64,000 nucleotides of DNA from an uncultured Planctomycetota bacterium (GTDB lineage Bacteria; Planctomycetota; Planctomycetia; Gemmatales; Gemmataceae), in NCBI GenBank assembly GCA_963849325.1, contig CAWKHF010000008.1, positions 128,001 to 192,000 on the forward strand, read 5' to 3'. The position numbers were made by a program, and so were the translations under genes. Under the pieces are notes generated by a model that made no database searches, was not told the DNA's origin, and saw only the letters and a program-made list of their open reading frames with translations. This document shows positions 55,829-58,698 of the stretch, piece by piece (the first letter of the stretch is position 1; every line of letters starts with the position of its first letter).

Positions 55829-56866
55829 TCACTTCCCCATCAGCTTTTCGAGAACGTACATCTCCAACCCCTCGTAATTGCGCTCGCCGCGGTACTGTTC
55901 GACCTTGGCCGCATCGACCGAGCGCACCACCTCCAGCAGACGCAGGAACATCTGCCGGCTGTTGGCGAGGTGCCTGCGTCTGGTCGGCCTGCTTCGTCGT
56001 GCGCATCGCCTTGACGTCCAGGCCGATGCAGCCGTCGTAGCCGGCCGCGCTCCAGCACCCAGACCGGGTTGAAGGCCCGCCGCAGATCGACCGAGCCGAA
56101 CGTCTTGTCCTGGTCGTATTTCAAGCCGTTCTGGTCGTTGAGATGGACGCTCCACAGCTTCTTGTGCCACAGGGCGTAGGCCATGTCGTCGGACGGATCG
56201 AGGCCGGCCAGGATCGAGTGGGCCGACTCGATCAGCACGCCGCAGCGCGACGGATCGCTGGCGCGGTAGCACAGGGCGAGGAAGTGGCCGGGCGTCGGCA
56301 GGTACGCCTGGTCCATCGGCTCGTTCGGCTTCATCTCGCCGAGGATGCGGATGTTCGGGTCGTGGGCCAGCAGGGCGTTGACCGCGTCCAGGATGCGCTC
56401 GTAGGACGTCGACGGGATCCTTGGCCTCGCGGATGTAGGTGCCCTCGCGGGCCAGCCACAGGACGATGTCGCGGCAGCCGAGGCCGTTGGCGATGTCGAT
56501 GGTGCGCTTGGAGCGCTCGATGGCGTACTTGCGCTCGGCGGCGCTGTTGGAGGTGTAGCCGCCGTCGATGGTCTTGGGGTGCTCCCACAGGCGCGGGGCG
56601 AGGAACTCGCAGAACAGCCCCTCGCCGTCGAGCATTTTCTTGACCTTGGCGACGCCCTTCTGCGTCTCGGCGGGGCCGAGGTCGGCGGGCACCACGTCGT
56701 CATCGTGGAACTGCACGCCGTCGAAGCCGAGTTTCTTGTATTCGCGGATTTTGGCGGCGAAAGCGACCTCCTTGCGCACCGGCGGGCCGAAGGGATCGGC
56801 GCCGGTGCTGATGTTCCAGGGGCCGAAGGTGAAGCGGTAGCTGCGCGGCTTGGAGAGAGCGGCCAT
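55829..56866 (-). CDS. xylA: Xylose-isomerase-like TIM-barrel protein; frameshifts
   Basis: FTFGPW..GADPFG, QFHDDD, VLWLAREG, EMKPNEP, ESAH, HLNDQNGLKYDQD motifs. Confidence 0.75.
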   Translation of the reverse strand: MAALSKPRSYRFTFGPWNISTGADPFGPPVRKEVAFAAKIREYKKLGFDGVQFHDDDVVPADLGPAETQKGVAKVKKMLDGEGLFCEFLAPRLWEHPKTIDGGYTSNSAAERKYAIERSKRTIDIANGLGCRDIVLWLAREGTYIREAKDPVDVLRAHPGRGQRPAGPRPEHPHPRRDEAERADGPGVPADARPLPRPVLPRQRSVALRRADRVGPLDPGRPRSVRRHGLRPVAQEAVERPSQRPERLEIRPGQDVRLGRSAAGLQPGLGAGARPATTAASAWTSRRCARRSRPTRRRHLANSRQMFLRLLEVVRSVDAAKVEQYRGERNYEGLEMYVLEKLMGK

Positions 56867-57282: not shown

Positions 57283-58298
57283 TCACATCCGCACTTCCAG
57301 CGCCCGCGCGATCTTGCGGCAGTCCGCCATCATCTGGCGGAAGGCGGCCGGCGTCAGCGACTGGTAGCCGTCGCTCAGCGCCTTGTCCGGGTTGGGGTGG
57401 ATCTCGACGATCAGTCCATCCGCGCCCGCCGCCACCGCCGCCCGCGCCATCGCCGCCACCAGGCTGGCCTTGCCGGTGCCGTGGCTGGGATCGACCACGA
57501 CCGGCAGGTGCGTGTGCTGGTGCAGATACGGCACGCTCGCCAGCGGCAGCGTGAAGCGCGTGTGGTCCTCGAAGGTGCGGATGCCGCGCTCGCACAGCAT
57601 CACCTGCGTGTTGCCCGTCTTGAGGATGTACTCGGCCGCCAGCAGAAACTCGTCCATCGTCGCCGACGGGCCGCGCTTCAGCAGCACCGGCAGGCTCGAT
57701 TCGCCGACCGCCTCCAGCAGCGGATAGTTCTGCATGTTGCGGGCGCCGACCTGCAACACGTCGGCGTAGCGCGACACCAGCTCGACGTGCTCCTTGGCCA
57801 TCACCTCCGTGACCACCGCCAGGCCGGTCGCCTCGCGCGCCTCGGCCAGCAGCTCCAGGCCCTTCTCCTTGAGTCCCTGGAAGCTGTACGGACTGGTGCG
57901 CGGCTTGAACGCCCCGCCGCGCAGGCCGGCCGCTCCCGCCTCCTTGACGGCGTGGGCGACCTCCAGGATCTGCTCGCGGCTCTCGACCGAACAGGGCCCG
58001 GCGATGACGCCGATCTGTCCGCCGCCGACGCGCAGGCCGCGCGACGTCGACCACGGTCGGCTCTTTCTTCACCTCGGTGCTGGCCATCTTGTACGGCGCC
58101 AGGATCGGGCACCACTTTCTCCACCCCTTCCAGCGTCTCCAGCGCTTGCTTGGCGCCGTCGCGCTTCTCGCCGAGGGCGGCGACGACGGTCAGCTCCGTG
58201 CCTTCGATGACGTGGCTGCGCAAGCCCAGCTGCTCGATGTGCTCGATCACCTGATCGATTTGCTCTTTCGGAGCGCCCTCTTTCATGACGACGATCAT
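57283..58298 (-). CDS. aroF: DAHP synthase, class I-beta, with N-terminal regulatory domain; frameshifts ~58040-58110
   Basis: [60 protein letters not shown] and ALSDG motifs. Confidence 0.93.
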
Positions 58299-58374
58299 GG
58301 CCGTGTCTCCGGCAAGGGAAGGGCGAACGGCCGGCATCCGCCGGCCGCCGGACGCCGGCCGTTCGCCGACATCG

Positions 58375-58412
58375 AAAAAGAGAGGCCCCGATGAGATCGC
58401 ATCGGGGCCTCT
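58375..58412 (-). terminator. Intrinsic terminator
   Basis: Minus strand AGAGGCCCCGATG-CGATCT-CATCGGGGCCTCT followed by CTTTTT. Confidence 0.8.
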
Positions 58413-58451
58413 TACAATTGGCTGCACCCGACGGCAGCCCGTCGGCTGCGT

Positions 58452-58484
58452 CTAGTGCAGCCTCACCTGGTCGCTATTACACAC
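58452..58484 (-). CDS. Putative 10-aa micropeptide MCNSDQVRLH
   Basis: GTG TGT AAT AGC GAC CAG GTG AGG CTG CAC TAG, 8 nt after GGAGG. Confidence 0.45.
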   Translation of the reverse strand: MCNSDQVRLH

Positions 58485-58592
58485 TAAGATCACCTCCTTT
58501 TGCCAGGGTTTCCCCGCCGTCGGCGACAAACCAGCTCACCGACGCGCGGGCTTTAGCCCCTCGCACCACGTTCGTGCGATCCAACCTGGTTT

Positions 58593-58620
58593 ATTGTAAT
58601 CGACCGGGCCAGCGGGTCAA
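58593..58620 (-). promoter_or_regulatory. Sigma70-like promoter
   Basis: -35 TTGACC (58620-58615), 16-nt spacer, -10 TACAAT (58598-58593). Confidence 0.6.
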
Positions 58621-58643: not shown

Positions 58644-58698
58644 CCGAGCCGCGACCGTCGGGGAGCGGAGCTTCCGCTCCCTGACGGTCGCGGCTCGG
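58644..58698. repeat. REP-like palindrome
   Basis: CCGAGCCGCGACCGTCGGGGAGCGG / CCGCTCCCTGACGGTCGCGGCTCGG. Confidence 0.85.

Follow-up and report, generated by a model that had tools for sequence, protein, structure and literature searches.

The stretch of DNA analysed here, called the window throughout, comprises 64,000 nucleotides (nt) of contig CAWKHF010000008.1 (positions 128,001 to 192,000; assembly GCA_963849325.1) from an uncultured planctomycete of the family Gemmataceae. On its minus strand, upstream of aroF, which encodes a DAHP synthase (ferredoxin-like domain and DAHP_synth_1; ATG at 58298), lies an independent gene for a small RNA of about 210 nt (205-215 nt; 58373..58586), which is not a leader of aroF. 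From 5' to 3' it comprises a hairpin P1, an extended hairpin P2a-P2b-P3, a Shine-Dalgarno (SD) tract, an open reading frame (ORF) of ten codons, a hairpin P4-P5 and an intrinsic terminator. A preliminary description of this region, made from the sequence alone, had proposed either a ribosome-binding small RNA or micropeptide gene, or a translation-coupled attenuator of DAHP synthase. The first of these proposals agrees with what we found: a promoter and a terminator of its own, both conserved, one copy per genome, and conservation of SD, start codon, frame and stop codon. We consider it probable that the element is a conserved small RNA in its own right, with a mini-ORF that is translated and gated by structure.

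The gene is bounded by its own signals. The promoter at 58593..58620, already noted in the preliminary description, consists of a -35 hexamer TTGACC (58620..58615) and a -10 hexamer TACAAT (58598..58593) separated by 16 nt and matches the consensus at 10 of 12 positions. A consensus scan found two promoter-like sites in the region where 0.1 was expected, and TTGACC and TAnAAT-like hexamers were aligned in most of the 17 homologous loci described below. The intrinsic terminator (58373..58412) has a 13-bp stem (58412..58381; nine pairs are G-C), a 6-nt loop and a U run (58379..58375). All 13 pairs but one changed on both sides in at least one of 17 sequences, and the ATG of aroF follows 74 nt past the end of the RNA, as good as the distance of about 75 nt given earlier. 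From the positions of promoter and terminator, the 5' end of the RNA is predicted at about 58586-58579 and its 3' end within the U tract 58379..58373. The minimum free energy (MFE) of a 221-nt stretch was -116.1 kcal/mol, compared with -85.1 +/- 4.75 kcal/mol for 200 dinucleotide shuffles (z = -6.5). Just upstream of the promoter, at 58645..58698, a perfect G+C-rich palindrome of 20-odd bp with a T run behind it (minus strand) probably serves as terminator to the gene that comes before; it gave chance matches to microRNA families in the Rfam scan.

RNAs related to the window copy are present in metatranscriptome libraries. Of the words sampled from a 601-nt stretch, a small share (0.05-0.10) was present in 19 RNA runs from 17 studies, and in four runs from four studies contigs of 150-270 nt with 85-100% identity covered 58374..58579 only. 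The summed word depths of these contigs reached about 70, and no contig in the same four runs lay over the 5' end of aroF or over the promoter. The contigs derive from relatives and carry neither strand nor end information, and what they say about the RNA ends is a weak hint. Neither the uncovered parts of the window nor the small word shares were taken as evidence of absence or of habitat.

The RNA is widespread among Planctomycetota. BLASTN detected the stretch in 17 of 41 genomes, including the window's own, and a covariance model, R1, comprised 17 sequences, 169 positions and 42 pairs, without the pseudoknot described below. R1 gave a single match in the window's own genome (182 bits; window 58587..58418, contig C8:186418-186587). 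It matched 126 of 151 genomes of the family (80 of 90 genera; 75 of 88 high-quality genomes) and 125 of 151 genomes of the order, including 9 of 15 from a second family. At E ≤ 0.01, 28 of 151 genomes sampled across the phylum were matched (for example 6/6 in family f4), a figure that is a lower bound, R1 being a family-level model. Positive genomes nearly always had one match. An exact-pattern scan over 185,579 species genomes brought up at least 119 stretches, of which 80 loci were taken for R1. The model matched 48 of these 80 at E ≤ 0.024. By their record labels, 45 are of Planctomycetota type, with Gemmataceae on top at about 155-158 bits, the other labels being Isosphaeraceae, Tautonia, Singulisphaera, Pirellulales, Blastopirellula, Phycisphaeraceae and Candidatus Kuenenia; two of the remaining three are labelled Chitinophaga(ceae), with a G+C fraction of 0.69-0.70 over the match, and one 'uncultured bacterium'. 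Cultured isolates are represented among the model-positive loci, Tautonia sociabilis being one. Judged from these matches and labels, the RNA spans at least three classes of Planctomycetota. A genuine RNA gene of this kind was expected to recur in relatives, and it did, with conserved structure and SD-ORF and at one copy per genome. R1 had no match at E ≤ 1 in four genomes of the family (G130, G062, G099 and G044; three genera), and a scan of these four for AAGGAGGTGRT brought up no look-alike in the 20 inspected of 42 matches. In a further genome, G001, the same model gave two weak matches only (15.7 and 14.8 bits; E 0.22 and 0.41).

The position of the RNA in front of aroF is the basis of the attenuator model, in which translation of the mini-ORF would control transcription of the DAHP synthase gene. 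In the window, aroF lies on the same strand, 74 nt further on and without a promoter-like site in the gap. A DAHP synthase gene follows on the same strand in 11 of the 17 close loci and in three of 32 wider loci, all of Isosphaeraceae type (two labelled Isosphaeraceae, one Tautonia). In the other six close loci, however, the downstream gene encodes a DUF4058 protein, a BON-domain protein, a DAO oxidoreductase or, in two cases, a product without Pfam match, or is a convergent FG-GAP gene (116 of 260 listed ORFs scanned with Pfam, at least 150 amino acids long). Elsewhere among the wider loci (75 of 76 ORFs scanned), genes for Zn-ADH, GDPD, GCS2, an aminotransferase, NADH-dehydrogenase subunits, DprA, MraW, a carboxyl transferase and a thioesterase were found downstream. 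The linkage to aroF on which the attenuator model depends therefore does not hold across lineages, and by the criterion of variable downstream genes set in the preliminary description the model is largely refuted. An antiterminator, formed by the 3' strand of P5/P4 and the 5' strand of the terminator, was no more stable than in shuffles (mean -12.71 versus -12.84 kcal/mol) and reached p ≤ 0.05 in one of the 36 sequences, out of 53, whose terminators were parsed. The peptide, as already noted in the preliminary description, has no aromatic residues, the window's ORF containing no Phe, Tyr or Trp codon. A second terminator-ended element, present in 8 of the 11 aroF-linked relatives, also speaks against the model, to which we give next to no chance. 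The proximity of RNA and aroF seems to reflect synteny handed down in the Gemmataceae/Isosphaeraceae group.

This second element is conserved, about 120-150 nt long and placed between the RNA and aroF (loci L004:1265-1420, L006, L007:1753-1910, L008, L009, L003, L011 and L015), where the gap to aroF measures 200-390 nt. It has a strong terminator of its own (...AAGCCYCUGGRACCCACGCGGUUCCAGRGGCUUUUUUU), had no Rfam match in the loci scanned, and is missing from the window; it could represent a further small RNA or else the actual leader of aroF. In the window, a long G+C-rich palindrome (GGCGAACGGCCGGCG...CGCCGGCCGUUCGCC; 58322..58371) fills the gap between terminator and aroF, and a similar, duplicated palindrome is found at the same place in genome G009 (L005). 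The window palindrome looks like a REP-like insertion replacing the second element.

The fold of the RNA was derived from single-sequence folds, pair counts and comparison of lineages, the counts being made over 57 sequences of the family and order. P1 (58561..58579), UCGCAC/GUGCGA with the 7-nt loop GAACGUG, contains the hairpin CGCAC-GAACGTG-GTGCG of the preliminary description. Its cells were paired in 99% of cases, four of six pairs changed on both sides, and the loop motif nnACGnn was retained in distant lineages. In the extended hairpin that follows (58502..58557), P2a, GCUA(G)/(C)UGGC (58557..58554 with 58505..58502; 92% paired), and P2b, CCCGC/GCGGG (58550..58546 with 58517..58513; 86% paired), enclose P3, CGUCGGUGA/UGUCGCCGACG (58544..58536 with 58528..58518; 87% paired), in which 8 of 8 pairs changed on both sides. 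The stem P3 had been recognised before and was recovered in homologue folds and pair counts. Two local hairpins assigned to the same region, GGGCU-AA-AGCCC and GGGAAACCC, have to be given up: their bases pair over a long range as P2a and P2b in the 17 homologues, in whose single-sequence folds the P2a-P2b-P3 architecture recurs. The third hairpin, P4-P5 (58420..58462), is formed by P4, GGCUGCAC(U)/(G)GUGCAGCC, and P5, GACGCAGCC/GGCUG-C-CGUC with the loop GACG (58443..58440). P4 (GGCUGCACU/GGUGCAGCC) encloses P5, and the stop codon UAG (58454..58452) lies at the P4/P5 junction; 93% of cells were paired and 8 of 18 pairs changed on both sides. The stem GGCUGCAC/GUGCAGCC around the stop codon was seen as previously drawn, in the fold, the homologues and the pair counts. 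The inner CCGACGG hairpin was not: the register GACGCAGCC/GGCUG-C-CGUC is that of the MFE fold and is backed by changes in genomes G029 and G023.

A pseudoknot, absent from the anatomy given in the preliminary description, connects the 5' domain with the mini-ORF. The apical loop of P3, CUGGUU (58529..58534), pairs with GACCAG (58467..58472), which forms codons 5-6 of the ORF at +13..+18 from the G of the start codon. Between 80 and 88% of its cells were paired, and the complementarity was held by different sequences in different lineages: CUGGUU/AACCAG, UGAUUGCC/GGCAAUCA, GGACUUC/GAAGUCC, UAGGUAG/CUACCUA, CAGUCAG/CUGACUG, GCUACAA/UUGUAGC, UCCGGUUU/GAACCGGA and GUAGAUC/GAUCUAC. Over all helices, 91.2% of cells were standard pairs, as compared with 32-46% when partners were slid; 31 of 48 pairs changed on both sides and none of 500 shuffles matched the observed values. 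The 57-sequence alignment, being fitted to the covariance model, favours the model, yet an independent MAFFT alignment of 17 sequences gave 84.7% paired against 33-45% with slid partners. The helices, for which covariation in homologues had been put forward as a check, do covary. A further candidate helix, P0, between the 5' tail and the SD-start spacer, was rejected: 73% of its cells were paired in the 17-sequence alignment, yet its energy (-3.89 kcal/mol) was that of shuffles (-3.88 kcal/mol; 69 sequences).

A conserved structured domain of this type invites a reading as a translational switch controlled by a ligand or a protein. P1, P2-P3 and the pseudoknot covary, loop nucleotides are invariant (ACG in the P1 loop, GACGG in the P5 loop) and the pseudoknot reaches the first codons, a geometry typical of translational riboswitches and ribosomal protein operators. 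In such a switch, the 5' domain would be an aptamer or protein site that, when occupied, locks the pseudoknot and blocks or traps the ribosome on the mini-ORF, comparable to the trapping of the 30S subunit by S15 on the rpsO pseudoknot. What the switch would control is how stable or active the RNA is. The downstream genes, however, belong to unrelated Pfam families, not to the coherent set expected of a riboswitch, and together with the terminator they leave no regulated gene visible. Nor can a ligand be guessed from the context, and Actinobacterial look-alikes of the RNA, discussed below, apparently do without the 5' domain. We regard a switch of this kind as unlikely.

Between the 5' domain and the mini-ORF lies the SD tract AAAGGAGGUGAUC (58488..58500), predicted to be single-stranded. 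The 13-nt exact complementarity to 16S rRNA claimed for 58500-58488 was verified against the organism itself: AAAGGAGGTGATC and the 3' end of 16S rRNA of the same genome (...GGATCACCTCCTTTCT) are complementary without a mismatch. In the 8.16-Mb genome this 13-mer occurs twice, at the RNA locus and antisense to the 16S gene; the 12-mer likewise occurs twice. No ordinary SD of the genome is as long as the tract, in agreement with the earlier remark that such a length is unusual for ordinary genes, and (A/G)AAGGAGGUG(A/G)U is near-invariant in the phylum-level sequences. It is most likely single-stranded, given that both the P0 helix and an internal anti-SD are unsupported in the window's family. 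A 3' anti-SD loop that would mask the SD was rejected as a general feature, being significant in 6 of 68 sequences, with means of -11.25 versus -10.8; an example is GAUCACCUC in loci L074, L140 and L082, and the terminator loop of the window's family reads AUCUC. Homologues of Planctomycetaceae and Pirellulales type (L074, L140, L084, L078 and L082) have an extra 3' hairpin or a terminator loop with GAUCACCU(C), placed 3' of P4-P5, a sequence that imitates the 3' end of 16S rRNA and is the complement of the SD tract in the same RNA. On its complementarity, this loop is a lineage-specific device for SD masking. Gaiella-type Actinobacterial look-alikes have a comparable CCGACCACCUC on the 3' side. 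A second purine-rich box, GGUGAGG (58461..58467), is located just 5' of P4, with which it overlaps, 3 nt ahead of the last sense codon. A GAGG- or GGAGG-like box is found at the same place, 3-6 nt before the last codons, in the lineages read, and also in the consensus GUGAGGUGGCUGC of the Rfam family Ms_IGR-5. The box might provide another contact with the anti-SD as translation terminates.

The mini-ORF, GUG UGU AAU AGC GAC CAG GUG AGG CUG CAC UAG (58452..58484), starts 8 nt after GGAGG and encodes MCNSDQVRLH, just as the preliminary description had read it. In all 56 family and order sequences examined (49 distinct ORFs), the first NUG at 6-9 nt after GGAGG opens an ORF, most often of ten codons (43 sequences), otherwise of 11 (10), 8 (1), 9 (1) or 20 (1). 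At phylum level, 18 of 18 sequences in which the SD was found by regular expression have an ORF of 10-17 codons at 5-10 nt after GGAGG, opened by the first NUG in 17 of them and by the second in L077; in L087, missed by the expression, an 11-codon ORF was seen by eye. The start codon alternates among GUG, UUG and AUG. The distance from start to P4 is 22 nt (48 sequences), 25 nt (7) or 19 nt (1) and thus always 1 modulo 3, which means that insertions and deletions within the ORF come in multiples of three throughout. The SD-to-start spacing, in the same 56 sequences, shifts by single bases, and the distance from start to the P5 loop, beyond the stop codon, falls into all three classes modulo 3 (33, 21 and 2 sequences). 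Stop codons are TAG (20), TGA (19) and TAA (17) and always lie at the P4/P5 junction. The pair of the third stop-codon base (G-C) is broken in 23 of the 56 sequences, and a stop codon is kept in all.

Indels in threes together with conserved start and stop codons are what is expected of protein-coding sequence, and the peptide itself might be the functional product. Within the family it is fairly constant (M-C/S-N/S-S/G-N/D-Q-V/R-R-L-x). Between lineages, however, neither the length of the peptide (8-20 codons) nor its sequence (for example MGSPNRRPSS, MDSDFSSQQRGGTA and MTDNCTRRLRL, translated by eye) is constant, the conserved codons are those that coincide with the pseudoknot and P4 strands, and no processing or export genes are linked to the RNA among the downstream genes of the loci. 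A micropeptide gene is therefore an improbable description. Selection, as read from this comparison, keeps SD, start, frame and the position of the stop but does not keep the peptide between lineages; we conclude that reading as far as the stop codon at the junction matters and that the peptide probably does not. In the window (58482..58477) and in most Gemmataceae-type homologues, a second GUG in the +2 frame is immediately followed by UAA or UAG (GUGUGUAA / GUGUGUAG), overlapping codons 1-3; this start-stop pair was not seen in the lineages outside the Gemmataceae-type sequences.

Two further explanations do without a role for translation as such or place it in the background. In the first, the RNA is structural and untranslated, its SD-like tract pairing with the 16S 3' end or another partner and the ORF being incidental. 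A tract longer than any ordinary SD of the genome would fit, as would the 3' loop GAUCACCU(C), complementary to the tract, that some lineages carry. An incidental ORF would hardly explain why the start-to-P4 distance falls into one frame class in 56/56 sequences, why one of three interchangeable stops is retained even where a base pair has to be given up and why AUG, GUG or UUG occurs at a spacing typical of SDs; the internal anti-SD, moreover, was significant in sequences outside the window's family only. The chance of this reading is slim. In the second, the RNA is a dual-function or base-pairing small RNA (sRNA) that regulates mRNAs in trans through unpaired stretches, and mini-ORF and SD serve to stabilise or gate it. 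A stand-alone, terminator-ended, conserved single-copy gene that appears in metatranscriptomes is typical of trans-acting sRNAs, and Rfam files the nearest families, CC2171 and Ms_IGR-5, as sRNA genes. The conserved unpaired stretches other than the SD, however, are 3-6 nt long, and the best-conserved single strand is the SD itself. We find a base-pairing sRNA quite unlikely.

With SD, start, frame and stop kept and the peptide not, we favour the view that the RNA behaves as a very small mRNA gated by structure, its conserved feature being the engagement of ribosomes. Its features suggest how this might work. A single strand of about 30 nt, comprising SD, spacer and GUG, would be exposed and closed at its ends by P2a and the pseudoknot. 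The 30S subunit would dock on this very strong SD through a 13-bp SD-antiSD helix. Position +13 from a start codon in the P site is about where mRNA enters the 30S subunit, as known from ribosome footprints and frameshifting pseudoknots. With GUG in the P site, the pseudoknot, beginning at +13, would sit at this entry site and the ribosome would be held until the knot melts. Codons 5-6 are knotted to the P3 loop, and the last three codons with the stop codon form the 5' strand of the P4-P5 hairpin; translation, once under way, would then unzip P4 and, by the stop codon, most of P5, and would end at the P4/P5 junction with the RNA remodelled. In this manner the fold of the RNA, and probably its lifetime or activity, would be set by ribosome initiation and passage; alternatively, the RNA might tie up ribosomes or 30S subunits. 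In such a role, which would be one in trans, the RNA would couple its own state to the SD-dependent translation capacity of the cell or else titrate 30S subunits. We put forward this mechanism, in the form stated, more tentatively than the gene itself and would give it somewhat less than an even chance.

Several points weigh against the reading as a structure-gated mini-mRNA. Translation of the mini-ORF and binding of the 30S subunit are predictions from sequence. The metatranscriptome contigs, coming from relatives, can give neither transcript ends nor strand. The four family genomes in which neither model nor pattern found the RNA are 92-100% complete, which indicates that it is not indispensable. 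Much of the ORF is also constrained by RNA structure (pseudoknot and P4), leaving frame and stop as the sole coding evidence. Frame conservation would imply reading to the stop and fits uneasily with a pure 'parking' role. For the two sRNA families with a similar layout, CC2171 and Ms_IGR-5, the passages cited below name no function.

The window also holds two interrupted genes. The frame of aroF is broken (57283..58298, minus strand), the ferredoxin-like domain running from 58298 and the catalytic domain (57816..57283) lying in another frame; in genome G007 the homologue of aroF is split over three frames. As both assemblies consist of few contigs, with completeness of 84.7% and 78%, assembly indels are a more likely cause than pseudogenes. 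At 55829..56866 (minus strand), a TIM-barrel gene whose product we take from its translation to be xylose-isomerase-like seems to switch frames (55829..56866 and 55840..56703), likely another assembly indel. The assembly of the window thus seems to carry indels; its RNA still matches the family consensus in every feature.

If our reading is correct, a phylum-wide small RNA of Planctomycetota has gone uncatalogued whose conserved core is ribosome engagement: an SD that is the strongest of the genome, a start codon and a frame-kept ORF of ten codons running through a pseudoknot. Annotators should not take it for granted that aroF is preceded by an attenuator leader in these genomes, and the intergenic RNA gene is one that pipelines based on ORFs and Rfam miss. 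The open literature searched, including the main text of three motif-discovery papers, contained no description of a Planctomycetota RNA like this one. Rfam 15 had no family at threshold on the window at E ≤ 10. The complete novelty expected from the preliminary description is softened by sub-threshold matches of one family, CC2171, on homologues. The housekeeping RNAs are encoded elsewhere in the genome: 6S RNA (72 bits), signal recognition particle (SRP) RNA (33.2 bits, below cut-off) and tmRNA (137.8 bits) lie on contigs C9, C5 and C7, respectively, and identity of our RNA with any of them was rejected. An apparent resemblance of ACCAGGUGAGG...GCAGCC to SRP helix 8 was discarded as well, these strands here pairing perfectly with each other. 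Nor do we claim a tRNA-Arg mimicry of the P1 loop (ACG/CGN), an RF2-like CUU-UGA-C site or a pairing of the P5 loop with 16S rRNA, all noticed by eye and none of them conserved across lineages.

Among well-studied regulatory RNAs, leader-peptide attenuators of the trpL, pheL and ermCL types also have a short ORF with a strong SD, the translation of which remodels hairpins near a terminator. Our RNA shares the short ORF, the strong SD and hairpins beside the terminator, but has no bias to regulatory codons, no supported antiterminator and no constant downstream operon. In pseudoknot or 'entrapment' operators such as that of E. coli rpsO, controlled by S15, an exposed SD is combined with a pseudoknot in the start region, and the 30S subunit binds but cannot proceed. 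The combination of exposed SD and pseudoknot at the start region would be shared by analogy; rpsO, however, controls a full-length downstream gene through a known protein, whereas the sole ORF here has ten codons. The Downstream-peptide motif and yfr6 are likewise conserved structured RNAs directly before a short conserved ORF (PMC2864571). In those RNAs the ORF has synonymous-site patterns that indicate a conserved peptide, whereas here the peptide varies and the structure overlaps the ORF.

Several clade-conserved look-alikes outside Planctomycetota emerged from the pattern scan, namely Actinomycetota, five Dehalococcoidia, two metagenome-assembled genomes (MAGs) of Alphaproteobacteria and one of Myxococcales. 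The pattern itself selects for these features, and the look-alikes are leads only; several non-Planctomycetota loci are ordinary genes with a good SD. Among the 31 such loci read, R1 had no match at E ≤ 1 other than weak ones in L158 (10.1 bits, E 0.37) and L148 (9.7 bits, E 0.48). The Dehalococcoidia MAG loci (L095, L123, L138, L164 and L165) share a promoter, a small hairpin, AAAGGAGGUGAU and a 23-codon ORF, whose peptide (..HSL...GDGRHQSGHDGV..) stays similar through synonymous changes. This ORF may be a genuine small-protein gene, distinct from the Planctomycetota RNA.

The closest likeness is to two sRNA families of other phyla. CC2171 (RF01867), an Alphaproteobacterial family named in Rfam as a Caulobacter sRNA, was the only recurring Rfam family. 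It matched 8 of 26 distinct homologous places with 22.8-34.5 bits, well short of its gathering score of 75 bits, always on the strand of the RNA and covering SD through terminator; it had no match on the window's own copy at E ≤ 10 or on L021 at E ≤ 1. Its consensus opens with cAAcaAucGAAAGGAGGUGAUCCAGUG, the same extended SD, spacer and GUG, and its 5' consensus GAAAGGAGGUGAUCC-AGUG, followed by a structured body and a terminator, has its counterpart in AAAGGAGGUGAUCUUAGUG of the window. CC2171, too, is a stand-alone, terminator-ended sRNA without assigned function in the passages available. Unlike our RNA, its Rfam model begins at the SD, without a counterpart of P1-P3, and its early codons pair, in the Rfam consensus, with a downstream strand and not with an upstream loop; it also belongs to another phylum than Planctomycetota. 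It was found in C. crescentus, where a condition affecting it was not identified, and was Northern-positive in Methylorubrum extorquens (10.1101/2022.01.24.477521). Ms_IGR-5 (RF02471), a family of Actinobacteria and like CC2171 of the sRNA-gene class, matched the Actinobacterial control loci L148 and L134, which came from the pattern scan and are genuine members, with 115.4 and 99.4 bits (gathering score 45). On the Planctomycetota loci it stayed below this score, with no match on 7 loci at E ≤ 0.1 and on 20 at E ≤ 1. In its consensus, GGAAGGAGGUGGUCC, UUG, about 11-12 codons and GUGAGGUGGCUGCCCGCUAG, an extended SD is followed by a short ORF, by a GAGG box with GGCUGC after it and by a stop codon that belongs to the 5' strand of a long hairpin, an arrangement that matches the order in our RNA (GGUGAGGCUGCACUAG). 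It apparently differs by the lack of a 5' domain, promoter-like hexamers being visible by eye just upstream of the SD, and R1 had no match on the Actinobacterial loci at E ≤ 1 other than the weak match in L148, which lies elsewhere in the locus. Streptomyces genome papers, in the parts available, list Ms_IGR-5 as a conserved sRNA without a stated function, with one copy in Streptomyces lividans.

Neither the Rfam models nor R1 connects these phyla at threshold. We therefore speak of a likeness of design between the Planctomycetota RNA and CC2171 or Ms_IGR-5, for which a distant homology is possible, and claim no membership. If our reading is true, it provides a concrete, testable hypothesis for these two orphan sRNAs, which have the same layout of SD and mini-ORF. 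The further step, that all three are branches of one old, cross-phylum class of 'ribosome-bait' RNAs, is a speculation that we consider rather unlikely. Members of such a class would be small single-copy transcripts that combine a maximal anti-16S SD with a mini-ORF locked into structure, in which a GAGG box precedes the stop codon. Their task would be to act on the translation machinery, either by capturing or parking 30S subunits or 70S ribosomes or by reporting the capacity for SD-dependent initiation, and not to encode a peptide or regulate an adjacent gene. The RNA described here would then be the Planctomycetota branch of this class, with CC2171 and Ms_IGR-5 as the others.

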